From positions 4,655-68,654 of the forward strand of contig JALWYS010000065.1 of NCBI GenBank assembly GCA_027003115.1: 64,000 bases of DNA, given 5' to 3'. Numbering within the stretch: position 1 is the stretch's first letter; every line of letters begins with the position of its first letter. Both the position numbers and the translations under genes were made by a program. The notes beneath the pieces are model-generated. The model had not been told where the DNA came from. It ran no database searches and saw only the letters and a program-made list of their open reading frames with translations. Positions 255 to 36,618 of the stretch are shown here, piece after piece. This stretch comes from Deltaproteobacteria bacterium (lineage in GTDB: Bacteria > Desulfobacterota > Dissulfuribacteria > Dissulfuribacterales > QOAL01).

Positions 255-533
255 ATGTTAAAGGCAGACCTGGTAAAAAGGCTAAAGGAGATTCATCCGG
301 AATTTACCCAGGCCGATCTCCAGGAAATGGTGGAGCTTGTGTTTGAACAGATATCCCAGGCCCTTGAAGAAGGAAGAAGGGTTGAGATAAGGGGATTTGG
401 AAGCTTCAGCCTTCACAGACAGAAAGAAAGACAATTCATAAATCCCAAGACGGGTCAAAAGACAGTCTGCCCCTCCAATTTCAGAATAGTCTTCAGACCA
501 AGCAACAATTTAAAAAGGATCGATTCTCTTTAA
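255..533 (+). CDS. ihfB: integration host factor beta subunit (HU/IHF family DNA-bending protein)
   Basis: 92-aa ORF. The motif VEIRGFGSFSLHRQKERQFINPKTGQK matches the IHF-beta signature IEIRGFGSFSLH...NPKTG. Confidence 0.85.
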   Translation: MLKADLVKRLKEIHPEFTQADLQEMVELVFEQISQALEEGRRVEIRGFGSFSLHRQKERQFINPKTGQKTVCPSNFRIVFRPSNNLKRIDSL

Positions 534-659
534 GGCACCTGATAGGTCAGGGAAATATTTCCGAAATCTTCTTGATTGTTTCCTGTTGCAAATGATTAGG
601 GCATAATTATTGTCTTTTTAGGTAACTCCTTCAAAAAGGCCAATGGGAGGCGAAACCTT

Positions 660-2429
660 ATGGCCAGCAAATCCAGCAGGACAAAGATAGCCCTTCTCGA
701 TCTTACCAGTTGCACTGGTTGTGAGGTGAATCTCTTGCGGCTCGGCTCAAAATTTCTTGAGCTTGCCGAACACTTTGAAATCGCAGATTGGCACATGCTT
801 CAAAGGGACAAGGATACGGACTATGATGTTGTTTTCGTTGAGGGCTTTGTGTGCAATGAAGAGCAGGAGAGGTTTTTAAGGCAGGCAAGAAGGACAAGTC
901 AGGTGCTAGTTGCCCTGGGGGCCTGCGCCATGACCGGTAACGTTTTTTCCCAGATCAAACCTGAGAAATACGAAGAGCTTAAATCAAGGGTCTATCCCCC
1001 TGGCTACCAACCTGTAACCCACTTTGTAAAGCCCGTTTCAAAGGTGGTGGATGTAGATCATGTGATTCCGGGATGTCCTGCAAGCAGTGAGGCGGCGGCA
1101 AAACTCTTTGAGGAGCTTAGCAAAAGGCCCATAACATCTCCACGGCTCAGGGTTCAGGAGCCTGACTTTGTATCAAGGATAGAAGGCCATGGCAAACTCG
1201 AAGCTGATCTTGAAAAGGGCCATGCCGTTTTTGCGCCAGAAGAAGGAGAACGGTTCGTGGAGGCCCTTGCAGTTGGCAGGCCATACTGGAGCGCTCCGAA
1301 ACTTCACAGCAGGATATGTGGCATCTGCCCGGCAGCACATACACTTTGTGCCATCGAGGCTTCCGAAAGGGCCCTGGGAATCAGGCCTTCAACACAGACC
1401 GTTTTGCTCAGAAGGCTTTTTCAGTGTGGACAGATGGTCTCAAGCCATCTTATGCATTTGTATTTAATGGTTCTGCCCTCCATTGCAGGCTTTGATTCCA
1501 GTGTGGATTTCAGCCTTGTTTATCCGGAGGAATTTAAGATATTTTTGGAGATAAAGAGGATAGCCGAGGAGATAACGGATGCCATAGGTGGCGCTCCCCT
1601 TCATGCGGTCAGCCTAGAGCCTGGAGGTTTTACCAGGGTTCCTGATGCAAAAAGGCTTTCACAACTTGGTCGTCGTATTGAAAAGGTACTCGACGACAGC
1701 CTGGATCTTGTGCGGATACTTGGCACTTTCAGGTGGCCAGAGGCCGAAACTGTTGCCCATATGCTTTGTGTTCAGCCGGAAAAAGATGAATATCCCTTCT
1801 ATGGCATGAGCCTAATACACAACGGGCCAGAGCCCGTTTCCGGCACGGACTATCAAGATCTCATAGAGGAACACACACGAAAGGGCCAGTCCGGAAAGGT
1901 GGCTTATCTCAAAGGGAAAAGGCCAGTAAAGACAGGGGCACTGTCACGGCTCTTTCGCTTTAACAGGCATCTTAATCCCCTTGCTTCTGTCATTTTCAAG
2001 GAACTTGGCATTAATTTTCAAAACCCCTTTCACAACAATCTTTCCCAGGCAGTTGAGCTCATTCACTACCTTGAGGAGGCCAGAAAGCTCCTGGCTGAGC
2101 TTGGAAAAGGGGATGTTTCAGGGGCCAAGATAGATGAAAAAAAGGTGAGGCAACAGGCGCTTTCAGGAAAAGGGCCATGGCCGAGGCGCGGGGTTGGAAT
2201 CATTGAGGCGCCAAGGGGAATACTCATTCATGACGTGGAAATTGATAAATCGGGCCTAGTTACCAATTACAATATCGTAACACCCACGGCCCTTAACCTG
2301 TCTGCCCTTGGGCCAGAGGCGGAGCTGTTTCTTCGGAAAAATCGGGATCTATCAAAGGAGAGAAAAAGGGCGGCCCTTGAGGATCTTGTGCGGGCCTCTG
2401 ACCCCTGCATCACATGTGCTGTTCACTAG
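660..2429 (+). CDS. [NiFe]-hydrogenase with a small-subunit (NuoB/HoxY-like) module fused to the large subunit in one polypeptide
   Basis: GGGAGG (645-650) lies 9 nt upstream of ATG 660. Residues 1 to about 165 carry the proximal-cluster Cys pattern C18-T-G-C21, GACAMTG and IPGCPA. The remainder carries RIEGHGK, the L1 motif RICGICPAAH (nt 1311-1340) and the C-terminal L2 motif DPCITCAVH (nt 2400-2426), followed directly by TAG. Confidence 0.85.
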   Translation: MASKSSRTKIALLDLTSCTGCEVNLLRLGSKFLELAEHFEIADWHMLQRDKDTDYDVVFVEGFVCNEEQERFLRQARRTSQVLVALGACAMTGNVFSQIKPEKYEELKSRVYPPGYQPVTHFVKPVSKVVDVDHVIPGCPASSEAAAKLFEELSKRPITSPRLRVQEPDFVSRIEGHGKLEADLEKGHAVFAPEEGERFVEALAVGRPYWSAPKLHSRICGICPAAHTLCAIEASERALGIRPSTQTVLLRRLFQCGQMVSSHLMHLYLMVLPSIAGFDSSVDFSLVYPEEFKIFLEIKRIAEEITDAIGGAPLHAVSLEPGGFTRVPDAKRLSQLGRRIEKVLDDSLDLVRILGTFRWPEAETVAHMLCVQPEKDEYPFYGMSLIHNGPEPVSGTDYQDLIEEHTRKGQSGKVAYLKGKRPVKTGALSRLFRFNRHLNPLASVIFKELGINFQNPFHNNLSQAVELIHYLEEARKLLAELGKGDVSGAKIDEKKVRQQALSGKGPWPRRGVGIIEAPRGILIHDVEIDKSGLVTNYNIVTPTALNLSALGPEAELFLRKNRDLSKERKRAALEDLVRASDPCITCAVH

Positions 2430-2451: not shown

Positions 2452-3057
2452 TTATTCAAAATCGGCACAGCTCCCCTTGCCGCGGCGAAGCACCTCTATT
2501 TCGTCATCCACCAGTGAGATCACGCTTGAAGGCTCCGGAGATATTATGCCTGAATCCACAATGATGGGGATCTGCTTGCCGAACCTTTTGGCCATTTCTT
2601 TTGGATCTGAAAAGATTTCATCCCCTTGGGATACAGTGGTACTGATTATGGGGTTTCCGAGCTGTCTTACTATTTCAAGGCAGACAGGATGATCGGGAAT
2701 CCTAATGCCAACGGTCTTTCTCTTTGTCAACATCATCTTTGGCACCTGGCGGGAGCCTTCAAGGATGAAGGTGTAGGGCCCGGGAAGATAACGTTTAAGT
2801 ATCCTGTAGGCAAGATCTGAGACCCTGGCATACTGGCTTATGTGACTCAAGTCTGAGCATATAAAGCTGAAGGGTTGGGTCTTCGGTATTCCTTTTATCT
2901 GGTAGACTTTTTCAATGGCCTTTTTATTGAATATGTCAGCCCCCATGCCGTAACAGGTATCCGTGGGGTAGATAACCACCTCTCCCTTTTTCAAGGCATC
3001 CACTATTTGGCGAATTTTTCTGGGCACCGGTCTTTTCGGATCTAATTCTATTATCAC
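2452..3057 (-). CDS. tsaC: L-threonylcarbamoyladenylate synthase (TsaC/YrdC/Sua5 family)
   Basis: Motifs VVIYPTDTCYGMGADI, LPGPYTFIL and GIRIPDHP. I prefer the GTG start at 3057-3055, preceded by AAGGAGGA at 7-nt spacing, over the longest-ORF ATG at 3099. Confidence 0.85.
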   Translation of the reverse strand: MIIELDPKRPVPRKIRQIVDALKKGEVVIYPTDTCYGMGADIFNKKAIEKVYQIKGIPKTQPFSFICSDLSHISQYARVSDLAYRILKRYLPGPYTFILEGSRQVPKMMLTKRKTVGIRIPDHPVCLEIVRQLGNPIISTTVSQGDEIFSDPKEMAKRFGKQIPIIVDSGIISPEPSSVISLVDDEIEVLRRGKGSCADFE

Positions 3058-3230
3058 GACTTTATCCTCCTTGGGGATTGACAAACATCTTGTTTTCAAG
3101 GTAACAATTTTGAACTACCGTTCAATTAATCAATGTATCAAAACAAGAAAGACGTTTTTTGCCTGTGGCGATTATTTCAAAGATAATCATGCAGGTGTTT
3201 ATGTGAAGAATAAAATTGAGGAGGAGTTAC

Positions 3231-8267: not shown

Positions 8268-11200
8268 ATGGCAAAAAGCGGTTCAATATTGGTCCTTGGA
8301 GGAGGCGTGGCTGGTGTTCAGGCTGCGCTGGACCTTTCCGAGCTTGGCTATTACGTCTACCTTGTGGAGAAAAAGGCGTCCATTGGCGGGGTTATGGCCC
8401 AACTGGACAAGACCTTTCCCACAAATGACTGTTCGTTGTGAATTTTAGCTCCCAAGCTTGTTGAGGCCGGTCGGTCTCCAAATATCGAAATACTCACAAA
8501 TGCCAAGTTAGAGGCCCTTGAGGGAAAGCCTGGAAGCTTTATTGCAAGGATTTACCAGGAACCCAGGTACATAAACGAGGATTTGTGCACTGCCTGCGGC
8601 ATGTGCACCATGTACTGTCCAAGGCCCGTGGTGGACACCTACAACGAGCGTCTGGACATTACAAGGGCCCCTCATATAGATTACGCTCAGGCGATTCCAT
8701 CCAGCTACTACATTGATGCAAAGGCGTGTCTCAGGGTGAACTATGAGACGTGTAACCTTTGTGCCCAGACCTGTACAGCAGGGGCCATAGACTTTACCCA
8801 GCAGCCAAAGGAACTGGATCTGAGTGTGGGTGCCGTGGTGCTGGCCCCTGGATTTGGCCGGGTTGACGAAAAGGTGCTGGAGAAGTTCGGTTATGGACGA
8901 TACCCGGATGTGCTCACATCCTTTGAGTTTGAAAGACTGACCTGTGCCTCTGGGCCAAGCGAAGGTCACATTGTTCGTCCATCGGACAACAAGCGCCCGA
9001 AAAAGATCGCCTTTCTCCAGTGCATAGGTTCAAGGGACGAGACCTGCGGAAACGGTTACTGTTCTTCCGTATGCTGCATGTACGCAATAAAGGAGGCCTC
9101 GGTCGCCAAGGAGCATGAGCCTGATCTTGACATATCCATCTTTTTCATGGACGTGCGTACCATGGGAAAGGGCTTTGATGATGCCAGAAAGCGCGCCCAG
9201 GAAAAATACGGCATAAATGTCATACGGGCAAGGGTTCCTAGGGTTGACCAAGTGGATGGAAAGCTTGCCCTTACCTGGACAACAGGTGACGGAGAGCACC
9301 ACTCCGGCCTTTTTGACATGGTTGTCCTCTCTGTTGGGCTTGAATCCCCGGAGGATGCCGATCTCATCTCCCGGGTGGCAGACATAGAGCTCAACCACTA
9401 TAATTTCTGTCGCACTTCAGTGGATGCGCCCCTTGTTTCTTCCAGAAACGGGGTGTTGGTGGCAGGTGCCTTCCAGGGGCCAAAGGACATCCCTGAATCT
9501 GTAACCCAGGCATCGGGTGCGGCCGCCATAGCCTCGGAACTGCTGGCAGAAGCAAGAAACAGCCAGACCGTAACGGTGACATACCCGGAAGAGGACAAGG
9601 CCCTTGAGGAGGAAGAGCCGCGCATTGGTGTTTTCGTCTGTCACTGCGGTGTGAATATCGCTGGAGTGGTGGATGTAAAGGCAGTGCGTGACTACGCAGG
9701 CACCCTTCCTGGGGTGGTGCTTTATGAGGACACGCTTTACTCCTGCTCACAGGATGCCCTTAAATCAATAGCTGAAAAGATCAAGGAGAACAGGCTAAAT
9801 AGGGTGGTCATATCCGCCTGTTCCCCAAGGACCCACGAGCCGCTCTTCCAGGAGACGCTTCGCTCCATAGGTCTTAATCCTGCCCTTGTGGAGATGGCCA
9901 ATATCAGGGACCAGTGTGCATGGGTCCATGCCCAGGAACCTGAAAAGGCCACGGAGAAGGCAAAGGACCTTGTTCGTATGGCCGTTGCAAAGGCACGGCT
10001 TCTTGCCCCCCTTGAACAGCCCACTGTGGATGTGACCCCATCCGCCCTTGTAATCGGCGCAGGCGCTGCAGGCATGTCTGCGGCCCTTTCCATAGCAGAT
10101 CAGGGTTACAAGGTGGTGCTCGTGGAAAAGGGAAGATCCCTTGGCGGAAACCTCAAGAGGCTTACCTGGACACTGGATGGACAGGATGCCTCCAAGGTCT
10201 TAAAAGACATGGTCAAGAAGGTAAAGGCCCACAGGAATATAGAAGTGCTGACCTCGGCCCAGGTAGAGTCTGTTTCCGGATACGTTGGAAACTTTACCAG
10301 CACCATAAGCAAGGGCGGCAAGACCCAGATGATAAACCACGGTGTAATAGTGCTTGCGACTGGTGGCCGTGAGTACAAGCCAAAGGGCTATGGCTACGGG
10401 GACAGCACCAGGGTCATGACCCAGCTAGAGCTGGAGGAGAAACTCGCCAGGGGCAAGGGTTTTTTAAGAAATGCCAAGAACGTTGTGATGATTCAGTGTG
10501 TCGGCTCCCGTGGAGACGACATGACCCACTGCAGCAGGCTTTGCTGCACCCAGGCGGTCAAAAATGCCTTGAAGCTCAAGGAGGCAAAGCCTGAGGTCAA
10601 CGTCTTTGTATTCTATAGAGACATGAGGACCTACGGCTTCTATGAGGATCTATACAGGGAAGCAAGGAAGAAGGGCGTAAAGTTCATTCGTTATACCTCC
10701 GACAGGAAGCCCGAGGTGATAAAGCTTTCCCGCGGCATAAAAGTAAGGGCCTACGATGAACTCATTGGCGATGACATAGAAATACCAGCAAGCCTTGTTG
10801 TCCTTTCAACAGGAATTGCACCTGGGGATAACCAGGAGCTTTCAAAAATTATCAAGGCACCCCTTACTTCAGATGGATTCTTCCTTGAGGCACATGCAAA
10901 GCTCAGGCCTGTGGAGGTGGCTGTTGACGGTGTTTACCTTTGCGGACTTGCCCACGGGCCAAAGAGCCTTGAGGAGTCGGTGGCACAGGCCAAGGCGGCT
11001 GCAGCCAAGGCCACCATTCCCCTTGCCAAGGGAAAGGTAGCGGTTGCTCCCATAGTATCAAAGGTGAATCAGGACCTCTGTATTGGCTGTGGTATTTGTG
11101 AAAGCCTCTGCCCCTTCAATGCCATAACTCTTGAGAAGGTTGGCAAGCGGAAAAAGGCCCGTACCATCACGGCCTCTTGCAAGGGTTGTGGAATCTGTGC

Positions 11201-11303
11201 CTCCCACTGTCCCACCATTGCCATATCCATGGGGGGCTTTACAGACGAGGCCATCATGGCCCAGATCCATGCCTTTTCGCCAGAAGGATGCGAGGAGGAA
11301 TAG
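8268..11303 (+). CDS. hdrA: HdrA-like heterodisulfide reductase subunit A; selenoprotein (UGA at 8439-8441) with a tandem two-module architecture of about 1011 aa
   Basis: ATG 8268 opens [68 protein letters not shown]. The frame is the same as ORF 8583..11303 and has no other stop. The TGA sits where the HdrA DCS(M/L)C-ILxPK motif has Cys/Sec. The second half repeats the HdrA N-terminal domain ([12 protein letters not shown]), an FAD fold ([14 protein letters not shown]) and a C-terminal 2x[4Fe-4S] ferredoxin. Confidence 0.88.
8463..8478 (+). promoter_or_regulatory. candidate bacterial SECIS apical hairpin for the hdrA UGA
   Basis: GAGGCC-GGUC-GGUCUC forms a 6-bp stem (one G-U pair) with a GGUC loop. 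The loop starts 30 nt after the U of UGA at 8439. Confidence 0.5.
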
Positions 11304-11306
11304 GGC

Positions 11307-12110
11307 ATGGCGCAGGAAAACGTTTTGGAAAAGGAGAACGAGATGGCCCAGGAGGGTTTTGAACCGAGGATATTGGGTTTTTTCTGCCACTGGTGCTGTT
11401 ACGCTGCTGCAGATGCAGCCGGTGTTTCAAGGTACCAGTACCCCCCGAACGTGCGTGTCATAAGGGTCATGTGTACAGGCAGGATAGACACACGTTTTAT
11501 CCTTGAGGCCTTCAGGTGCGGAGCAGACGGGGTCTTTACCGGCGGCTGACACCTCGGGGAGTGTCATTACCAGTCTGGTAATTACGAGGCAATGATAGTG
11601 GCAGAAACCTGCAAGCAGTTCCTTGCAGACTGTGGCATCAATCCTGACCGCCTTACCCTGGAGTGGGCATCTGCAGCAGAGGCGCCCCGATTCGTGGAAC
11701 TCATTACCGGTTACGTAAACAACATCAAGGAAAAGGGTGAGATAGGCGCTGCGGAAGGGGAGGTGGACTCTGCGACCATCAAGCGCAGGCTCAAGGCAGC
11801 GGTCAAGGCTGCTGAGGCAAGAAAGCCTAGGAGTGCCCTAGGTATGTTGGCCAAGAAGCTTCATAAGGATGGTGAATATTCAAAGGAGGCCATAGCCAAG
11901 GGTGTTTCCTCAAAGATTGTTCCTGCCCTCCGTGCAGAAAGGATCAAGGAGGAGATGATACTTCTCCTTAGGGATGGGCCCATGGATATTGATGCGCTCT
12001 GCAGTGCCCTTTCTGCAAAGAAAGAAGAGGTGGAAAAGCCCCTTTCACAGCTGCAGAAAAAGGGTGTTGTCGAGGAGCAGGATGGAAAGTTCAAACTTAC
12101 AGGCAAATAA
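11307..12110 (+). CDS. mvhD: MvhD-like (methyl-viologen-reducing hydrogenase delta subunit family) selenoprotein with a C-terminal extension; UGA at 11547-11549
   Basis: ORFs 11307..11549 and 11592..12110 share a frame and are joined by an open stretch. The sequence [37 protein letters not shown]...[19 protein letters not shown] aligns to the MvhD GCHxGDCHY motif, with TGA at the first Cys. GAGGAGG lies upstream of ATG 11307. Confidence 0.88.
11552..11589 (+). promoter_or_regulatory. candidate SECIS hairpin for the mvhD UGA
   Basis: The outer stem pairs CCUCG (11552-11556) with CGAGG (11585-11589). The inner perfect 7-bp stem pairs AUUACCA (11566-11572) with UGGUAAU (11576-11582) around a GUC loop. 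The loop lies 26 nt after the UGA. Confidence 0.6.
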
Positions 12111-13097: not shown

Positions 13098-13766
13098 ATG
13101 ATAATAGCAGAAAGAAAACCCATGAAGGAGCTGCTGGAGATGGTCTCCGATGTAAAGAAGCTCCTGATAGTAGGCTGCCGGGGTTGCGTGGCAGTTTGCT
13201 CTGCAGGAGGCGACAAGGAGGTCAGCATCCTTTCAGCAGCATTGAGGCTTGGAGTTAAAAGGGCCGGTGGTGAAATAGAGATCCATGAAGATACCCTGGT
13301 TCGTCAGTGTGATCCAGAATACATAGATCCATTGAATGACAAGGGGGCAAAGTACGATGCAGTCCTTTCAATGGCGTGTGGCGTTGGGGTCAATTTTGTT
13401 GCCGACAGGTGTCCGGATGTAAATGTGCTGCCTGCTTTAAACACCACCTTTTACGGGGCAAATCTTTCAAGTGGGGAGTGGAAAGAGATGTGTGCAGGCT
13501 GTGGGGCCTGCGTCCTTCACCTGACTGGAGGCCTTTGCCCTGTGGCCAGGTGTGCAAAAAGCCTTTCCAACGGCCCGTGCGGCGGTTCCCAGGGTGGAAG
13601 ATGTGAGATCAACCCCGATGTGGACTGTATTTGGCAACAGATTTACGACAAACTATCCAGTATGAACCGTAAAGAGGAGCTCAGGCAGATTATGCCCATG
13701 AGGGACTGGACTACTGCTGGACATGGAGGGCCACGTCGGAGAATAAGGGAGGACTTGCTACCGTGA
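13098..13766 (+). CDS. metV: MetV, Cys-rich small subunit of acetogen-type methylene-THF reductase
   Basis: The N-terminus MIIAERKPMKELLEMV plus many Cys motifs (GCRGCVAVCS, CAGCGAC, CPVARCAK, GPCGG) are typical of MetV. It sits immediately 5' of metF with an overlapping TGATG junction. Confidence 0.8.
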   Translation: MIIAERKPMKELLEMVSDVKKLLIVGCRGCVAVCSAGGDKEVSILSAALRLGVKRAGGEIEIHEDTLVRQCDPEYIDPLNDKGAKYDAVLSMACGVGVNFVADRCPDVNVLPALNTTFYGANLSSGEWKEMCAGCGACVLHLTGGLCPVARCAKSLSNGPCGGSQGGRCEINPDVDCIWQQIYDKLSSMNRKEELRQIMPMRDWTTAGHGGPRRRIREDLLP

Positions 13767-16700
13767 TGTCTGGAAGCAATTTTGAAAACGTACTTCGTTC
13801 TGGGACCTTTGCAGTCACAGGCGAATTGGGGCCACCCAAAAGCGGCGATATGGAAGTTGTCAGGAGAAAGGCCAGGATTCTAAAGGGCCATGTGGATGCC
13901 GTAAACATCACAGACTGTCAGACTGCAATCGTGCGGATGTCGAGCCTTACTGCAGGTCTCATTGCCCTGTCTGAAGGGGTTGAGCCTGTCATGCAGATGA
14001 CCTGCCGTGACCGTAACAGAATCGGCATGCAGGCAGACATCCTTGGAGCCTCTGCCCTTGGAATAAAGAATCTTCTGTGTCTTACAGGCGACCATCAAAA
14101 GTTTGGGAATCATCCCCAGGCCAAGGGTGTCTTTGATATGGACTCCATTCAGCTCCTCCAGATGGTCAGGGGCATGAGGGATGAAAAACGGTTTCAGTGT
14201 GGCGAGGAGATAAAGAAGGCTGAGCCAAAACTCTTTCTTGGGTGTGCGGCAAATCCCTTTGCGGATCCCTTTGAGTTCAGACCTGTCAGGCTTGCAAAGA
14301 AGGTGGATGCAGGGGCAGACTTTGTCCAGACCCAGATCATATATAATGTGGAAAAGTTCAAGAAGTTCATGGAGATTGCCAGGGATCTTGGCCTCCATGA
14401 AAGGTGCTTCATACTGGCAGGTGTGACACCACCAAAGTCCCTGGGAATGGCCAGGTACATGAAGAAATTTGTTCCTGGGCTGGATGTTACGGACGATGTC
14501 ATACAACGTCTTCAGGACGCCAAAGACCAGAAGGAAGAGGGCATTGACATCTGTGTAGACATCATCAAGCAGGTCCAGGATATTCCAGGGGTTTCCGGTG
14601 TTCATGTAATGGCCATTGAGTGGGAAGAGGCTGTACCCGAGATAGTAAAGAGGGCAGGCCTTTCACAAAGGCCAGAACCCAAGGGCATAGAGCCTGTTCT
14701 TACAAGCGGTAGTGCCATTGACGAGGCAGTTGAAAAGGCCCGCAGGGAGGCCAGGCTTGAGCTTGAGGGCGAGCTTGAAAAGGTGAAGGCCGAGGCACAG
14801 GCCTCAAGAGATCTGCTGGCAAAAGAAAAAGAGAAGGTTGCCTCTGAGATTTCAAATCTCAAGAAGCAGGTAGAGGAGGCAAAGAGCATGGTAAGCCGTA
14901 AGGAGGCTGAAATACAAAAACTTACTGAGGAATTGCAAAAGGCAAAAGAGGCAGCTTTAGACACAGCTGCCCAAGCACCTGCAGCCTCTAAAGAGGCAAT
15001 AGCCGGAGAACAGGAGGCCACCGTTACGGTTTCTTCCGGCGCTTTGAGTGCCAGGGAACAGCAGGTGCTGAGTTCACTCAACAAGGGGCTTGTTGCCCTT
15101 AAGGAAGTCTTGGGGCTGAATGACGCCCAGTTCGAGGCCATGAGACGGTTCCTTGAGGCGGAGTTCATGCTCCAGCTTGGAACTGTAGTAAGGGAAACTA
15201 CACAGGTTGCGGAGGCTCCCCGGGTACAGCCTGAGGCGCCACCTGCCCCGGCTACCGAGGCACCTGTTGTGGAACCAGTGGAGGAGACAAGGCCTGCGGA
15301 AGAAGAAAAACCGCAAAGGCCCAAGGAGGTTGTGAATCTGGTTGCCCAGGGCAATGTGGCCCTTCATGCCAAGGATTTCAAGAAGGCCCTTGAGCTGTTT
15401 AAAAAGGCCCTTGAGATTTCCCCTGAAGATGAGAAGGCCAAGGAAGGGCTTGAAGCGGCAAGAAAAGCCCTTTTAGAGGAGAAAGAGGCAGCAGATAAGG
15501 CAGTGAAAATCAAGGAGGTTGAAGGTCTTCCTCCATGCCCTGAAGAGATAGACCCGGATGAGTGGAAGCGCAAGTGGATAATTCGTTTTACAGCCCGTGG
15601 TAACGTTGCCCTTATGAAGGGCGACTTTGAAACTGCAAAGAAGGAGTTTCAAAAAGCCCTTGATCTTGATCCAGATTATGAAAAGGCAAAGGATGGCCTA
15701 GCCAGGGCCGAAAAGGGCGAAGACATATTCGTACCTGATGTGAAGCCAGGCGAGGTTGAGGCTGCAGCTCCTGCCCCTGAAGAGAAAAAGATAGAGAAAG
15801 AGGTTGTAGAGGCAAAAGAGGAAAAGCCTGTTAAAGAGGAAGCTGTTGAGGAGAAACCGGCTCCGCCAAAAGAGGCAAAGGAAGAGGAAGTAAAAGAGGC
15901 ACCAAAGCCCAAGGCAAAGGTTGAGATAAGTGCTCCTGCCGGAGAGGGCGTCGGAGATCTGGAAGTGGCTCCGTTTCCAAAGGATGAGCCGCCACTTGAA
16001 GAGCGAGCCAAGGGTATTCCTGAGGAGGTTTACAAGGAGCCGTGCACTGGAGTTATTCAGAGTGTGACAATAGGGGATGGAGACAAGGCCATTACAGTGG
16101 GAGGAGAGACGGCCCTGCCTTTCCATGCCTTTGAAGGCGATATTCCCAACCTTCCAAGGACGGCCTTTGAGGTGCTCGATTCCCCACCCGAGGAATGGCC
16201 CGAAGTGCTCCTCAAGTATTATTCCGACGTTGTAAACGATTCAGCGGCCTGGGCCAGAAAGTGTGTCAACGAGTTTGGCGCCCAGGCAATATGTCTGTCC
16301 CTTGATTCAACAGATCCCAATGGTGCCAACGTGTCATCAGCGGATGCCGCCCAGGTGGCCAAAAAGGTCATAGAGGCCGTTGATGTTCCCATCATCCTGT
16401 GGGGCTGTGGTAATGCTGAAAAGGACACCGAGACCTTGCGTGAGATAACAGGGCTTGTTGAAAATAGAAATGTTTGTATAGGTCCTTTGACCGACGCCAA
16501 CTACCGCACCCTTGGGGCAACGGCCATGGCATTTCAGTATCCTGTTGTGGCCTCTACTCCCATAGATGTAAACCTTGCAAAACAGCTGAATATTCTCCTC
16601 GAAAACCTGGGTGTTCATCTAGACCATATCCTAATGGATCCGTCCATTGGCGCTGTGGGTTACGGGCTTGAGTACACCTATTCTGTAATGGAGAGAATAA

Positions 16701-16951
16701 GACTTGCTGCACTTACCCAGCAGGACGAGAAATTGTCACCGCCCATTATATGTAACCTGGGAAGAGAGGTATGGAAGGCCAAGGAAACAAGGCTTCCAAC
16801 CGATGCCGAGCTTGGCGACCAGGAGAAAAGGGGCGTGCTTATGGAGGCAATTACCGCCTCAACCCTCCTTCTTGCAGGGGGAGAGTTGACTGTTATGCGG
16901 CATCCAAAGGCCATAAACCTTACAAACGTCCTTGTTGAAGGGATGTTGTAA
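13763..16951 (+). CDS. metF-acsD: fusion protein: methylene-THF reductase MetF (aa 1 to about 300), a linker of about 450 aa (coiled coil, TPR-like, Pro/Glu/Lys-rich), and corrinoid Fe-S protein small subunit AcsD (aa about 750-1062)
   Basis: One uninterrupted 1062-codon ORF; the start is GTG 13763 or ATG 13766. The N-terminus (FAVTGELGPPKS, NITDCQTAIVRMSS, MQMTCRDRNR, LCLTGDH) is MetF. The C-terminus from about nt 16010 (TVGGETALPFHAFEG, PIILWGCGNAEKD, VASTPIDVNLAKQLN, MDPSIGAVGYGLEYTYS, VMRHPK) is AcsD/CfsB. Confidence 0.85.
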   Translation: MMSGSNFENVLRSGTFAVTGELGPPKSGDMEVVRRKARILKGHVDAVNITDCQTAIVRMSSLTAGLIALSEGVEPVMQMTCRDRNRIGMQADILGASALGIKNLLCLTGDHQKFGNHPQAKGVFDMDSIQLLQMVRGMRDEKRFQCGEEIKKAEPKLFLGCAANPFADPFEFRPVRLAKKVDAGADFVQTQIIYNVEKFKKFMEIARDLGLHERCFILAGVTPPKSLGMARYMKKFVPGLDVTDDVIQRLQDAKDQKEEGIDICVDIIKQVQDIPGVSGVHVMAIEWEEAVPEIVKRAGLSQRPEPKGIEPVLTSGSAIDEAVEKARREARLELEGELEKVKAEAQASRDLLAKEKEKVASEISNLKKQVEEAKSMVSRKEAEIQKLTEELQKAKEAALDTAAQAPAASKEAIAGEQEATVTVSSGALSAREQQVLSSLNKGLVALKEVLGLNDAQFEAMRRFLEAEFMLQLGTVVRETTQVAEAPRVQPEAPPAPATEAPVVEPVEETRPAEEEKPQRPKEVVNLVAQGNVALHAKDFKKALELFKKALEISPEDEKAKEGLEAARKALLEEKEAADKAVKIKEVEGLPPCPEEIDPDEWKRKWIIRFTARGNVALMKGDFETAKKEFQKALDLDPDYEKAKDGLARAEKGEDIFVPDVKPGEVEAAAPAPEEKKIEKEVVEAKEEKPVKEEAVEEKPAPPKEAKEEEVKEAPKPKAKVEISAPAGEGVGDLEVAPFPKDEPPLEERAKGIPEEVYKEPCTGVIQSVTIGDGDKAITVGGETALPFHAFEGDIPNLPRTAFEVLDSPPEEWPEVLLKYYSDVVNDSAAWARKCVNEFGAQAICLSLDSTDPNGANVSSADAAQVAKKVIEAVDVPIILWGCGNAEKDTETLREITGLVENRNVCIGPLTDANYRTLGATAMAFQYPVVASTPIDVNLAKQLNILLENLGVHLDHILMDPSIGAVGYGLEYTYSVMERIRLAALTQQDEKLSPPIICNLGREVWKAKETRLPTDAELGDQEKRGVLMEAITASTLLLAGGELTVMRHPKAINLTNVLVEGML

Positions 16952-21534: not shown

Positions 21535-21560
21535 ATGGTGGGTCATTCCCACCATTTTTG
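21535..21560 (+). terminator. intrinsic-terminator-like hairpin between acsE and fdhA
   Basis: ATGGTGGG (21535-21542) pairs with CCCACCAT (21548-21555) around a 5-nt loop and is followed by TTTT. Only about 17 nt remain before the fdhA ATG. Confidence 0.55.
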
Positions 21561-21576
21561 TATGGAAAGGTTGCAA

Positions 21577-24500
21577 ATGGCTGAATCAATCAAAATCACG
21601 CTAGACGGCAATGAGATCAAGGCCAAAAAGGGTCAGACAATCCTTCAGGCTGCAAGGGAGGCGGATATCAAGATACCCACCCTTTGTTATCTTGAAGGAG
21701 GCAGTGATTCTGAACGGCCCTGTCTTTTGTGCATGGTTGAGGTGGAGGGGATTGGCAGGGTCAGGGCATGTAATACCTTGGCTGAGGATGGACAGGTCAT
21801 AACTGTTCATTCCAAGGACCTGGATGCCTTCAGAAAGGAGAGACTCACAAGGCTTGCGGAGAGCCACTACGGGGACTGCCGGGCTCCATGTAATCTTACC
21901 TGCCCAGGCGGCATAAACGTCCAGGGATACGTAAACCTCATTGCCAAGGGCGAATACAAGGCTGCCCTCATGCTCATAAAGGAGAAAAATCCCCTGCCCA
22001 TTTCCGTTGGCAGGGTTTGCCCCAGGTTTTGCGAAACAAGGTGCAGGAGGATACTCCTCGATGAGCCCATAGCCATAAACCACTTAAAACGTTTTGTTGC
22101 CGATTATGCCTCTGAAATGGGTTTCAGGGATGATGTCGTGGGAAAGCCTACAGGAAAGAAGGTGGCTATAATCGGTGGGGGCCCTGCAGGCCTTTCCTGT
22201 GCCTATTTCCTTAGAAAGCAGGGGCATGATGTCACTATATTTGAGGCAGAGGAGAAGCTTGGAGGGCTTTTAAGGTATGGAATTCCCGGCTACAAGCTTC
22301 CAAACAAGGAGGTGGACAAGGAGGTCCAAAATATCCTAAATCTTGGTGTCCACGTAAAACTTCAAAAGAAATGGGGCCAGGATTTCACCATCAAGGACCT
22401 TAAAGATCAGGGCTATGGGGCGGTCTTCATTGCTACCGGACTTTCAAGGCAGAAGAAGCTTGAGATAGAGGGGGCAGAGCTTGCCATTTGCGGTCTAAAG
22501 TTTCTGAAAGAGGTGAACAAGGGTGGAGCCCCTGCGGTTGGCGAACAGGTCCTGGTGGTTGGAGGCGGTGACATAGCAGTTGACGCTGCCAGAAGTGCAC
22601 GGCGACTTGGCGCTAGAAACGTCACTGTCATCTATCCTCGTTCGCGGGTTGAGCTTCCGGCCCACCAGCGGGAGATAGAGGAGGCGGAAAAGGAAGGGGT
22701 TCAGTTTTTCCTCATGGCAACCCCCCTTAAAATCACTGAAGAAGAGGATAAGCTGAAGGTGGAGATGGCCCGGACAATCCTGGACGAGCCTGATGAAAGG
22801 GGAATCAGGCACCCAATCCCAATGCCGGGTTCGCGTCTTTACTGGACAGGAGATACAATTATTTCAGCCCTGGGCCAGGAAGGCGATCCAACATTTCAAA
22901 GCTTTGGTGAGATCGAGGCCTCCATCAAGCTTACTCCAAGAAAGACCATAAAGACCCATCCAAGCACCATGAAGACCAGTGTGGATGGCATTTTCGCAGG
23001 AGGTGACGCAGCCACCGGTTCAAGGACAGTGATACAGGCCGTTGCCGGAGGAAGAAGGGCTGCTGAATCCATCCACGAATACCTCATGAAGGAGAAGGCC
23101 GGGATAACAGAGGCCAGATTCAACTTCACCAAGGGCAAGCGCTTTGAAGACGTGGACATGCACAATTTCGACGGCTATTCTATTCAGCTGAACGAAGTAA
23201 TGCCTTCCAGGCCTCCTGAAAGACGGATCGGTGATTTTGACGAGGCAAATCTTGGTTTTTCAGAAGAGATGGCGGTTCGCGAGGCCAAAAGGTGCCTGCA
23301 ATGCGGATGCCTTGGGCTTTCAAAGTGCACCTACAGGGAGCTTTGCGTTGATTACAAGGTCAAGGCAAATGTTTCCCATACAAGGCTTAAATATCCAGTT
23401 GACAGAAGCCATCCCTTTATTGTCATCGATGCAAATAAGTGCATAGGCTGCACAAGGTGCTTGAGAAGCTGTAAATATGGTGCCCTTGAGCTAGACATCA
23501 AATGGGATGAGAAGTCCCAGGTCATTCAGGATGTATCCATCAGGCTTAATGAAAAATGCGTATCATGCGGGGCCTGTGTGGATGCCTGTCCTACTGGTAC
23601 CCTTTCCAAGCAGGACCTTGTAATTCCACTTTTTCCAGAGCAGGTAACCAAGGTAAAGAGCGTTTGCACTTACTGTGGCACGGGCTGTAGCCTTGACGTG
23701 GTTTCCAAGTATGGGGCCATTTTGGAGGTGAAGGCCGATTCGTCAAGACCGCCAAATTGGGGACAGCTGTGTGTAAAGGGCAGGTTCGGTTACACCTTTT
23801 ACAGGCATGAGGAGAGGCTCAGAAGGCCCCTGGTAAGGGATAACATCGATGAGCCTTTCAGAGAGGTGGATTGGGACGAGGCCCTTCGGGTGCTGGCTGC
23901 CCGCCTTAATGCCATTCGGGACAATTTCGGCTCTGATAGCGTTGGAGTCCTTGCCTCATCAAGGTGTACCAACGAGGAAAACTATCTTCTCCAGAAGCTT
24001 GCCCGTGCAGCCTGGGGCACAAACAATGTGGATAACTGTGCCCGGGTCTGACACGCTCCTTCTGTCAGCGGTCTGCTGGCGACACTGGGAAGCGGAGCAG
24101 CAACCACACCCTTCGAGCAGATTATAGGTACGGACTGTCTCTTGATCTGCGGCTCTAACACCACTGAGGCCCATCCCATCGTTGCGCTCAAGGTGAAAGA
24201 GGCAGCAAGGACAGGAACCGACCTCATAGTCATTGACCCAAGACGAACAGAAGTTGCCTCCATTGCCCAAGAACAGCCAGGCGGTTTGTTCTTGAGGGTG
24301 GCGCCTGGAGGAAACATCCCCCTTCTCAACTCCATCTTGTACTGCATCATTGAAGAGGGGCTAATAAACGAGGACTTCATATCAAAACGGACAGAGCATT
24401 TTGAGGCCATAAGGAAACATGTAAAGGATTACCCCCCTGAAAAGGTGTATCAGATAACGGATGTTGATCCGGAACTAGTGAGGGCTGCTGCTCGAAAGTA

Positions 24501-25692
24501 CGCCTCCTCCAAAAATTCCCTTATCCTCTACGGCCTTGGAGTTGCCGAGCACAAGGGTGGCACGGCCGGGGTAATAGCTCTGGCAAACCTTGTCCTGGCA
24601 ACAGGTCAGGTAGGCAAGCCCCACAGCGGCATAAATCCGCTAAGGGGGCAGAACAACGTGCAGGGAGCCTGCGACATGGGGACCTTGCCTTACACCTTCC
24701 CGGGTTATCAGCCAACTGATGATCCAAAGGTGCTTGAGAAATTTTCCAATGCCTGGGGAGTGAGCAGTCTTCCGGTATCAGACGGCCTTCTTGAGCCCCA
24801 GATGTACGATGCGGCCCTTGAGGGCCGATTCAAGGCACTTTACTGTGTAGGTTACGACCCTGCCCAGACCCAGTCTAACATTGGCAAGGTGCACGAGGCG
24901 CTAAAGGCCATGGATCTTGTGATGGTTCAGGATCTCTTTCTCACGGAAACAGCCAAGTTTGCCCATATTGTCCTGCCATCTGCCTGTTTCTATGAAAAGG
25001 ATGGTACCTTTACAAGTGGTGAGCGACGGGTAAGACGTGTCAACAAGGTCATAGATCCGCCTGGAAAAGCAAAGGCAGACTGGGAAATAATTTGTCTCGT
25101 TTCCCAGGCCACTGGATATCCCATGTTTTATACTGGGCCTGAGCAGATAATGGCAGAAATAGCAAGGGTGACCCCGGCCTATGCAGGTATCAGCTACGAC
25201 AGGCTTGGGGACAACGGAATGGTCTGGCCATGTCCCTCTCCCGACCATCCGGGAACCCCACTTCTCCATACGGGAAGTTTCCCGAGGGGTAAGGGTACAT
25301 TTGTGCCTGTCTCCTATATCATTCCAGAAGAGGAGGCTGATGAAGAGTATCCCTTTGTTCTCATTACCGGAAGGCGGTTGGAACATTACAACAACGGTTC
25401 CATGACTAGACGCTGCGAGGGATTTGACCGGCTGTGTCCAGAGGAGCTGGTGGAGATAAATCCGGAAGATGCGGCACGGCTCAAGGTGGAAGATGGAGCC
25501 GTGGTTAAGGTGGAATCAAGACGTGCCAGAATAAAGGCCAGGGTCAAGGTCACAGAAAGAAGTAAGCCTGGGGTGGTGTTTATGACCTTCCACCATCAGG
25601 ACACCTTGACCAACTTCCTTACGAGTCCTGGCATGGACGCCAAGACCCTAACTCCTGAATACAAGGTGTGCGCAGTGAGAATCAAACCATAA
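21577..25692 (+). CDS. fdhA: selenocysteine formate dehydrogenase, single-polypeptide fusion (2Fe-2S ferredoxin + GltD/NfnB-like NAD(P)H-FAD module + 4Fe-4S domains + Mo/W-bisPGD catalytic domain); UGA at 24049-24051
   Basis: ORFs 21535..24051 and 24142..25692 are in the same frame with an open junction. The junction reads NNVDNCARV-TGA-HAPSVSGL, the classic FdhA Sec site. The N-terminus has CYLEGG...CLLC...C (2Fe-2S). Next come CRAPCNLTCPGG...GRVCPRFCETRC, VAIIGGGPAGLSCA and VLVVGGGDIAVDAA (GltD-like), then CIGCTRCLRSC, CVSCGACVDACP and CTYCGTGCSL. I prefer the start MAESIKI at 21577. Confidence 0.9.
24064..24080 (+). promoter_or_regulatory. SECIS hairpin for the fdhA UGA
   Basis: GUCAGC-GGUCU-GCUGGC forms a 6-bp stem (one U-G pair). 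The loop starts 21 nt after the UGA and closely resembles the E. coli fdhF apical GGUCUGC element. Confidence 0.75.
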
Positions 25693-35481: not shown

Positions 35482-35901
35482 ATGCCTGCAACCATACTCG
35501 TCAAGTCCCAAGGCCCTGTTTCAATACAAAGCATAAAAAGAAGTGCTAACTGGCTGCTAAGGAGCCAGTTGCTTTCCCATAAGGAACTCACTGTTGTCCT
35601 TACGGACAATGCCGGAATAAAGGAAATAAACAAAAGATGGTTTAAAAGGCCCTGGGCAACAAATGTCATCTCTTTCCCGTCTGAGGAGCCTGGCATTCTG
35701 GGGGACATTGTCATATCCGTTGAAAGGGCAAGGGAAGAGGCCCAGGAGGGGCTGACCACTGTTCAAAACCGGACCATTGAGCTTTTGATCCACGGCTTTG
35801 TCCATCTTTTGGGGTATGATCATGAGCTTGGCCCTCATGAAGAAAAACGCATGGCCAAAAAGGAATTTGAGCTAAAGAGGAACCTTTTCAGGAGGAGTCT
35901 A
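35482..35901 (+). CDS. ybeY: rRNA maturation endoribonuclease YbeY (no stop codon of its own; reads in frame into pdxJ)
   Basis: Zinc-binding motif [11 protein letters not shown], plus TNVISFP and GDIVIS. The reading frame continues without a stop into the pdxJ coding sequence. Confidence 0.8.
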
Positions 35902-36618
35902 ATGGCAGATCTTTGTATAAATGTTGATCATGTGGCAACCATTCGTCAGGCGAGGGGTGGGGTGGAACCTGACCCGGTTGTAGCCGCAGGTATTGTGGAG
36001 CTTGCGGGTGCGGATGGGATCGTTGTGCATCTAAGGGAGGACAGGCGCCACATACAAGACAGAGACGTGCGTCTGCTCCGCCAGATCGTTCAGACGCGCC
36101 TTACCCTTGAGATGGCTGCAACTGAAGAGATGCTTGGAATTGCTGAAGACATCAAACCGGATATCGTGACCCTTGTTCCTGAGAAGAGGCAGGAGCTTAC
36201 CACAGAGGGGGGGCTGGACGTATTGGCGCTTGAAAAATCCATTACGGATGCCGTTAAAAGGCTTCACGATGCAGGTATTCCGGTGAGCATATTCATTGAC
36301 CCTGAAAGGGACCAGATCGAGGCCGCCAAAAGGACAGGCGCTGAATGCATAGAGATACATACAGGCCGTTATGCCGATGCGGAAAGTGAGGAAGAACGGG
36401 AGAAGGAGTTCGATTCAATAGTGGAAATGGCAGGATTTGCCGCTGATATTGGCCTCAGGGTACATGCAGGCCATGGGCTCAACTACCAGAACACCGGAAG
36501 GCTCGCCGCAGTCAGTGAAATAGTGGAATTCAGCATAGGCCACTCTGTTATTTCAAGATCTGTTTTTGTGGGCATTGAAAGGGCAGTGAAGGAAATGCTT
36601 GCAATTGTAAAGGGTTAA
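35902..36618 (+). CDS. pdxJ: pyridoxine 5'-phosphate synthase
   Basis: [42 protein letters not shown] and HAGHGLNY. An internal AGGAGG (35890-35895) lies 6 nt before ATG 35902. Confidence 0.9.

Follow-up and report, generated by a model that had tools for sequence, protein, structure and literature searches.

The 64-kb stretch of DNA analysed here (the window), from contig JALWYS010000065.1 of a Deltaproteobacteria bacterium of the order Dissulfuribacterales, carries near its start a gene for a [NiFe]-hydrogenase in which the small and the large subunit form a single polypeptide. The open reading frame (ORF) occupies positions 660..2429 of the forward strand, with an ATG start and a TAG stop, and encodes a protein of 589 amino acids (aa). 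An earlier note, made from the sequence alone, had described this ORF as a small-subunit module fused to a large subunit, and the description is borne out: a single chain contains PF01058 (Oxidored_q6) at aa 18–150 (E 1e-20) and PF00374 (NiFeSe_Hases, E 4e-26), and 30 fused homologues were found. The gene has a G+C content of 0.50, against 0.49 for the window. Its features are as follows.

645..650, + strand: Shine-Dalgarno-like GGGAGG, 9 nt 5' of the ATG, by direct reading of the sequence
660..2429, + strand: whole ORF, fused small and large [NiFe]-hydrogenase, stop codon included (Pfam PF01058 and PF00374; 30 fused homologues)
660..1121, + strand: small-subunit module, aa 1–154 (PF01058 at aa 18–150; match to the delta subunit of Pyrococcus furiosus SHI; AlphaFold2 secondary structure)
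711..722, + strand: C18-x-x-C21, predicted ligands 1 and 2 of the proximal [4Fe-4S] cluster (invariant; aligned with the CxxC of SHI delta, HoxY and MvhG)
924..926, + strand: C89 (GACAMTG), predicted proximal cluster ligand 3 (alignment and solved small subunits)
1074..1076, + strand: C139 (PGCPA), predicted proximal cluster ligand 4 (alignment and solved small subunits)
1122..1172, + strand: inter-module linker, aa 155–171, approximately 17 aa (variable sequence and length; low AlphaFold2 confidence)
1173..2426, + strand: large (catalytic) subunit module, aa 172–589, group-3b-like (NCBIfam, PDB and Foldseek matches)
1311..1340, + strand: L1 motif RICGICPAAH, aa 218–227, with C220 and C223 as predicted NiFe ligands (R-I-C-G-I-C-P..H invariant)
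2205..2219, + strand: EAPRG motif, aa 516–520, with the conserved Arg519 (invariant in the 30-sequence alignment)
2400..2429, + strand: L2 motif DPCITCAVH, aa 581–589, with C583 and C586 as predicted NiFe ligands, followed by TAG (no C-terminal extension)

The small-subunit module, of around 155–165 aa, has the hallmarks of a hydrogenase small subunit, namely a flavodoxin-like domain and four proximal-cluster cysteines. It ends after the helix that follows the fourth of these, approximately 15 aa beyond C139. The earlier note had read the four cysteines from the motifs CTGC, GACAMTG and PGCPA, correctly: C18, C21, C89 and C139 align with the proximal-cluster cysteines of P. furiosus SHI delta, HoxY and MvhG, and do not vary among the homologues. 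The module has no medial or distal cluster domain and no further Cys motifs, whereas the small subunits of unfused relatives have 8–9 more cysteines in about 100 extra residues. In a PDB search, aa 7–142 matched SHI delta best (6e-21, covering residues 3–139 of its 261), ahead of HoxY and MvhG (7e-16).

The large-subunit module has both of the signatures of a catalytic subunit, L1 (RxCGxCxxxH) and L2 (DPCxxCxxH/R), and with them the four NiFe cysteines. The motifs RIEGHGK (aa 173–179, including Glu175), RICGICPAAH and DPCITCAVH are present as the earlier note had them, and the protein does end at the His of the last, whose codon CAC directly precedes the TAG at 2427–2429. Arg519 of the EAPRG motif is taken here to be the active-site Arg, from established knowledge of [NiFe]-hydrogenases. 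A PDB search with aa 169–589 gave SHI alpha as the best match (1.8e-56); weaker matches were MvhA (8e-32) and the large subunits of group 3d HoxH and NiFe-HydABCSL (8e-35 and 3e-33). The best NCBIfam matches are Pyrococcus sulfhydrogenase alpha (ShyA/HydA, aa 171–589, 2e-66) and delta (aa 9–149), although every score is far under the equivalog cut-off (225 bits versus 700).

The earlier note had proposed a structure prediction of the fusion. This was made with AlphaFold2 from the family alignment, and gave a predicted local distance difference test score (pLDDT) of 83.6 and a predicted template modelling score (pTM) of 0.87. Confidence was low only at the termini, in the loop at aa 47–50 and in the linker at aa 168–175 (pLDDT <50). 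The model indicates that the protein would fold as one compact body. When it was compared with solved structures using Foldseek, the best matches were SHI alpha chains, with target-normalised TM scores of 0.86–0.89.

Relatives, distribution and origin

In a large protein collection, 30 protein clusters contain both Pfam domains. They are 565–610 aa long and 37–92% identical to the window protein. All eight metal-binding cysteines are invariant in their alignment, as are the Glu175-Gly-His of RIEGH, Arg519 and the C-terminal His, which is the end of the chain in 30/30. The linker varies in length across the family, and is much longer in one member (P0061). The window protein's own cluster at 90% identity has 17 members, nearly all of 589 aa, from independent NCBI and ENA assemblies with contigs of up to 181 kb. 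An assembly or frameshift artefact is excluded: the earlier note had named a stop or frameshift near nt 1150 as fatal to its claim, but the frame is open throughout the junction (approximately nt 1120–1175), which is shared by 17 sequences of at least 90% identity and by around 30 more distant clusters. The comparison of sequences thus confirms a genuine, conserved single-polypeptide [NiFe]-hydrogenase architecture, with ligands predicted for the proximal [4Fe-4S] cluster only.

Within the window protein's cluster, one 181-kb contig has the gene split into pieces of 66 aa and 534 aa (P0204 and P0205). This is probably a frameshift or stop early in the small module of that assembly, away from the fusion junction. 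A 178-aa protein (P0157), considered as a possible stand-alone truncated small subunit, proved to be a frameshifted fragment.

Among 1.84 billion cluster representatives, all of them searched with HMMER, no more than five full-length fused clusters were recovered at the 50% level, along with fragments, and the family is therefore rare. Two further scans were made, of one genome per GTDB species and of metagenomes, in both of which the counts of fused loci are lower bounds. Most of the matches listed in the GTDB-species scan have a separate small subunit (243–300 aa, 12–16 Cys) upstream of the large one, usually directly. The fusion was found there in at least three Patescibacteria metagenome-assembled genomes (MAGs; L008–L010) and in one Thermodesulfobacteriota fragment that ends at a contig edge. 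The metagenome scan added at least seven fused loci of Patescibacteria type, and none of Thermodesulfobacteriota type among the matches listed. The hosts of the family are Patescibacteria and Thermodesulfobacteriota, roughly half each; the named homologues at 51–59% identity are labelled Desulfocapsa, Desulfobulbaceae or Deltaproteobacteria. The host of the window gene is Dissulfuribacter-like: the GlnA encoded in the window shares 91% identity with its counterpart in Dissulfuribacter thermophilus, and 97% with one from a MAG labelled 'Thermodesulfobacteria bacterium'.

Neighbour-joining trees with bootstrap (100 replicates) place the fused sequences in a single clade (100/100). Within it are a Thermodesulfobacteriota-type subclade (100/100) and a Patescibacteria-type group (71/100). 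The fused clade joins an unfused, extension-less sister lineage, mostly from the candidate phyla radiation (CPR), at 89/100, and the family is nested among 3b-type operons. Two of the nearest unfused large subunits illustrate the layout that we take to be ancestral: P0058 (L090) lies in a beta-gamma-delta-alpha operon with a delta of 257 aa, and P0059 (L091) lies directly behind a 263-aa delta gene, on a short contig that starts near delta.

One locus from the metagenome scan, L099 (23–1762), has a layout of its own. A separate truncated small subunit of 160 aa comes first; its reading frame closes with a TAA, and the ATG of the large subunit follows immediately. This large subunit has 418 aa and ends in ...DPCITCSVH, with no extension. 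The TAA sits at the position of the linker, so that a single stop codon is the difference from the fusion, and in the tree L099 falls inside or beside the fused clade. From its sequence we regard it as an intermediate form between the separate-gene and the fused layouts.

The earlier note had made the missing maturation peptide part of its claim. The absence is real, but as a trait specific to the fusion it has to be rejected, given that many of the nearest unfused 3b-type large subunits likewise end at the His. The extension-less end is, judging from these alignments, inherited within a wider lineage of catalytic 3b-type relatives. The survey also turned up the opposite arrangement. In P0168, P0197 and P0199, and probably also in P0200, a group-3b-like large subunit has a normal short C-terminal extension that runs on into a fused HycI-type maturation protease domain. 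In the first three, substrate and protease are contained within one chain.

On the basis of these observations, we hypothesise that the ancestor was a tail-less heterotetrameric enzyme of group 3b type (beta-gamma-delta-alpha). It would have lost the diaphorase subunits beta and gamma, together with the C-terminal half of delta and its medial and distal clusters. What was left of delta, a proximal-cluster domain of around 160 aa, would then have been fused through a flexible linker onto the N-terminus of the large subunit, L099 having stayed or become unfused. One branch would have moved between Patescibacteria and Thermodesulfobacteriota; the distribution of the family suggests that the gene was transferred between CPR bacteria and Thermodesulfobacteriota.

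Gene neighbourhoods

In the window, the hydrogenase gene is flanked by a HU/IHF-like gene (255..533) and by a convergent yrdC/sua5 (2452..3099). Beyond yrdC there is a Wood-Ljungdahl cluster, in the order fhs, folD, cooS, hdrA, mvhD, a gene for an iron-sulfur (FeS) protein, mvhD, metV, the metF fusion, acsB, acsC/D and acsE. The earlier note had found no hyp or endopeptidase genes flanking the hydrogenase. This holds more widely, in that no hyp, endopeptidase or second hydrogenase gene is present among the approximately 50 ORFs (mostly ≥150 aa) scanned across the 64 kb. The locus of a close relative (L089, 92% identity) has the same immediate flanks, a HU-like gene upstream and a convergent yrdC downstream, on an 8.3-kb contig that stops before the Wood-Ljungdahl and Hdr genes.

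The ORFs from 11 non-redundant fused loci were compared by all-versus-all clustering. Only hypC, DUF6390 and EamA recur, and only in loci of Patescibacteria type. In five of these (L004, L008, L092, L094 and L095) hypC is convergent with the hydrogenase gene and overlaps its 3' end, while genes for DUF6390 and an EamA transporter recur upstream. The unfused relative L091 is also accompanied by DUF6390 and hypC, and DUF6390 may have an accessory role for hydrogenases. Across the 11 loci, neither a kinase nor any other signalling gene is conserved, and nor is a sulfur-handling gene. There are no HoxF/U-like genes at any of them, and no genes for beta or gamma diaphorase subunits either there or among the ORFs scanned in the window.

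Loci of Thermodesulfobacteriota type present a different picture. The gene tends to be co-directional with stress or envelope genes rather than redox genes (L001, L087, L088 and the contig of P0010). In the Desulfocapsa MAGs a Usp gene lies upstream of the fused hydrogenase. The neighbours in L088 are BON, a Na/H exchanger, two Usp genes, HisKA and GGDEF; those in L087 are a holin-like membrane protein (PF04020) and MscL; and the contig of P0010 has MgtE.

Several other genes of the window deserve mention. Three of them, all on the forward strand, contain an in-frame TGA. The MvhD/FlpD gene at 11307–12110, annotated as two ORFs, has one at 11547–11549, inside a GG-[C/U]-HxGxCHY motif ('FTGG*HLGECHY'), and its product probably contains selenocysteine. 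In hdrA (8268–11303) there is a TGA at 8439–8441, in 'TNDCSL*ILAPK'. The ORF list starts this gene only at 8583, but its true start is probably around 8268, and HdrA is likely to be a selenocysteine-containing protein. A formate-dehydrogenase-like gene (21535–25692) is split by a TGA at 24049–24051 in the classic context 'CARV-U-HAPS'. It encodes 2Fe-2S, GltD-like FAD/NAD(P) and 4Fe-4S domains at its N-terminus, and looks like one selenoprotein of approximately 1385 aa. Two further ORFs on this strand are fusions. The 1062-aa ORF at 13763–16951, within the Wood-Ljungdahl cluster, unusually combines a methylenetetrahydrofolate reductase (MTHFR) domain with a CdhD/AcsD-like corrinoid-protein domain, the two being spaced by a long Glu/Lys/Ala/Pro-rich region and tetratricopeptide (TPR) repeats. 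The 378-aa ORF at 35482–36618 combines the endoribonuclease YbeY (aa 23–131) with PdxJ (aa 144–375).

Proposed function and its alternatives

On balance, we think it probable that the gene encodes a catalytically competent, cytoplasmic, minimal one-polypeptide [NiFe]-hydrogenase, which passes electrons from its one cluster to a separately encoded partner. As predicted from the conserved ligands, H2 would be split or formed at a standard NiFe(CN)2CO site held by C220, C223, C583 and C586, with Glu175 and Arg519 nearby. The electrons would then pass to the single [4Fe-4S] cluster (C18, C21, C89 and C139) in the N-terminal module, which the compact predicted fold suggests is docked against the large module. 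Because the medial and distal clusters are gone, the proximal cluster would hand them directly to a partner protein encoded elsewhere, and the argument of the earlier note, that a single relay cluster calls for a separate redox partner, is upheld as a logical inference. The likeliest partner would be a ferredoxin-type carrier, or else a directly docking oxidoreductase. A ferredoxin is the most economical guess across hosts as unlike as Patescibacteria and a Wood-Ljungdahl sulfur bacterium. Physiologically, the enzyme might either take up H2 or evolve it as a redox valve.

There are precedents for this scheme. The engineered alpha-delta dimer of P. furiosus SHI has high activity, and pyruvate:ferredoxin oxidoreductase (POR) can reduce it without an intermediary (PMC3200332). 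Natural small subunits with a single cluster are also present in solved structures, namely HoxY (5xf9_C, 189 aa) and HydS (7t2r_E, 179 aa).

Maturation would still require the Hyp machinery, and hypC adjoins the gene in Patescibacteria members. An endopeptidase would be dispensable, because there is nothing beyond the His to remove. In the accepted view, [NiFe]-hydrogenases are obligate heterodimers, and their small subunit joins only once the large one contains its cofactor and, in most cases, has been cleaved. The flexible linker may hold the tethered small module clear while the cofactor is inserted.

Three points weigh against the proposed function. A small module tethered in cis is hard to square with the canonical order of assembly, in which the small subunit joins only a completed large subunit. 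All of the members of the family derive from metagenomes or MAGs. Finally, no redox gene is shared across the 11 non-redundant loci.

A more ambitious version of the proposal is possible, and we advance it tentatively. It is that the protein is a self-sufficient natural single-chain [NiFe]-hydrogenase, which matures without a protease and with its small module tethered in cis, docks a ferredoxin or oxidoreductase, and constitutes an overlooked cytoplasmic hydrogenase of Dissulfuribacterales-type bacteria, acquired from CPR. The order Dissulfuribacterales includes Seep-SRB2, partners of methane-oxidising archaea, which are reported as having lost hydrogenases; in a comparison with their Dissulfuribacteriales relatives, Seep-SRB2 are reported to be without periplasmic hydrogenases (Murali et al., 2023).

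Four other explanations have to be weighed. The earlier note had named HdrA/MvhD, 6–10 kb downstream, as the nearest candidates for the redox partner, and the fused protein might accordingly be the H2-oxidising module of an Mvh-like bifurcating system, docking HdrA/MvhD and supplying the MetFV/Hdr complex in the Wood-Ljungdahl pathway. Genes for HdrA and two MvhD (FlpD) proteins are present at 8.3–13 kb of the window, in methanogens it is MvhD that naturally accepts the electrons of the hydrogenase (5odc), and L089 preserves the immediate flanks, although its contig ends before any Hdr genes. We nevertheless consider this unlikely. The convergent yrdC separates the gene from the cluster, and the two do not form a co-oriented operon. 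The ten other non-redundant fused loci, whether of Desulfocapsa type, from other Thermodesulfobacteriota or from Patescibacteria, have no Hdr or MvhD nearby. The large subunit is far nearer to the 3b enzyme SHI than to MvhA, and in Mvh the donor to MvhD is the distal cluster of MvhG, a cluster that the fused protein does not have. The proximity of HdrA/MvhD in the window is most simply regarded as incidental, these genes lying inside the metF/metV/acs cluster and belonging with metFV. It is decidedly improbable that the protein is instead an H2 sensor or regulatory hydrogenase resembling group 2b HoxBC/HupUV. Sensory hydrogenases also have no C-terminal extension, the gene is solitary, without electron-transfer subunits, and in some Thermodesulfobacteriota loci (L088, L001) it is co-directional behind Usp, HisKA, GGDEF or BON genes. 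Against this, the extension-less end is shared with catalytic 3b-type relatives that have full beta-gamma-delta-alpha operons, both sequence and fold are those of group 3 and not of group 2, and the signalling genes are not conserved alongside, the recurrent neighbours in Patescibacteria being hypC, DUF6390 and EamA only.

A stand-alone 'sulfhydrogenase', in which the exposed single cluster reduces polysulfide, S0 or another small oxidant directly with H2, is very improbable in our estimation, despite some circumstantial points. It would suit bacteria of sulfidic habitats and those that disproportionate sulfur, there are homologues in Desulfocapsa-like and Dissulfuribacter-like bacteria, the P. 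furiosus sulfhydrogenases are the closest characterised relatives, and genes termed 'group 3b (possibly sulfhydrogenase)' have been mentioned for Desulfocapsaceae (PMC10811913). No sulfur-handling gene is conserved near the fused genes, however. Reduction of S0 by SHI is an in-vitro activity attributed to the AsrAB-like beta and gamma subunits, which are absent here. Hardest of all to credit is a decaying or non-catalytic relic. The gene divided into 66 and 534 aa could be read in this way, and degenerate fusions of small and large subunits do exist, such as P0088, which is without the CxxC pairs of L1 and L2. But in the fused family the eight metal-binding cysteines, Glu175, Arg519 and many structural residues are invariant at only 37% identity, and in Patescibacteria members hypC adjoins the gene. 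P0088 itself is a 696-aa protein, in which a full-length small subunit, with its medial and distal Cys motifs kept, is fused to a large-subunit-like domain that has lost the L1 CxxC spacing and the entire L2 motif.

If the window protein is indeed a minimal catalytic hydrogenase, as we favour, it has several implications. We found evidence for no smaller [NiFe]-hydrogenase layout than this conserved natural fusion, with its single relay cluster and without a cleavable tail. Heterologous expression and engineering would gain a scaffold that needs one gene and no protease, and the protein would be a test of whether maturation truly needs the small subunit to be absent. Patescibacteria and sulfur-cycling Thermodesulfobacteriota would also have a hidden capacity for handling H2, since current pipelines annotate the fused proteins merely as 'large subunit' or 'sulfhydrogenase alpha'.

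Comparison with known hydrogenases

The closest known group is 3b, the NADP-coupled 'sulfhydrogenases', which includes SHI and SHII of P. furiosus and Hyh of T. kodakarensis. The best NCBIfam, PDB and Foldseek matches of the large subunit (SHI/SHII alpha) and the neighbour-joining tree all place it there; the small module is nearest to SHI delta, and the cytoplasmic location and the proximal and NiFe ligands are also alike. In contrast, the fused family has no beta or gamma genes, and in place of a delta of around 250 aa with three clusters it has a part of around 160 aa with one, within a single chain. The C-terminal extension is of 4 residues in SHI and 5–17 in many 3b enzymes, and is absent from the fused protein.

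The other groups fit less well. For group 3c (Mvh), the matches to MvhA and MvhG are weaker, and mvhD is adjacent to the hydrogenase in no locus, being 9 kb away inside the metFV/acs cluster in the window. Group 3d (HoxFUYH) has the single-cluster trait in common, but HoxH and HoxY are more distant than SHI, and HoxF/U-like genes are missing. Group 2b shares the extension-less end, but the affinity is to group 3, with no conserved kinase nearby. HoxY (group 3d) and HydS of NiFe-HydABCSL are nonetheless instructive, being small subunits of around 180 aa with the proximal [4Fe-4S] cluster only, which feed an adjoining FeS subunit (HoxU and HydA, respectively). They differ in being separate polypeptides, encoded in operons with HoxFU or HydABC, and in having large subunits more distant than that of SHI. 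The alpha-delta heterodimer of P. furiosus SHI (Hopkins et al., 2011, PMC3200332; PDB 9e15) is similarly minimal and free of beta and gamma, and serves here as a functional model; it is, however, man-made and consists of two polypeptides, and its delta retains all three clusters.

We found no description of a natural fusion of small and large [NiFe]-hydrogenase subunits in the open-access literature, including the HydDB paper; the nearest are the HyhS-[FeFe] fusion and hyd2. The HyhS-HydA fusion of archaeal hybrid hydrogenases (groups 3f/3g; Greening et al., 2024, PMC11216029) likewise has a group-3 small-subunit domain fused to a catalytic hydrogenase domain. The catalytic domain in that fusion has an [FeFe] H-cluster, and the large subunit of [NiFe] type is a separate component of a five-gene complex (PMC11216029). 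The example shows the small subunit to be a module that can be moved between proteins.

The earlier note had asked whether the architecture is an already defined subgroup. In part it is: a truncated form without beta and gamma has been noticed in CPR as 'hyd2', and left uncharacterised, with no mention of the fusion (Jaffe et al., 2020, PMC7304191). It is described there as a long-branch sister of the CPR 3b clade 'hyd1', of uncertain function, with a small subunit that averages 164 aa, without recognisable beta or gamma, and with hypC nearby (PMC7304191). Compared by description only, hyd2 fits the unfused L099 and the Patescibacteria half of our family, and the fused proteins too combine a small-subunit part of about that length with the absence of beta and gamma. 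The differences are that the paper gives a separate small-subunit protein (PMC7304191), and that it treats hyd2 as specific to CPR, with no other hosts mentioned, whereas the window version is in a Dissulfuribacter-like member of the Thermodesulfobacteriota. The best reading of these sequence relationships is that the family derives, as a single-chain form, from the uncharacterised 3b hydrogenase of hyd2 type, and that its range extends to Thermodesulfobacteriota.

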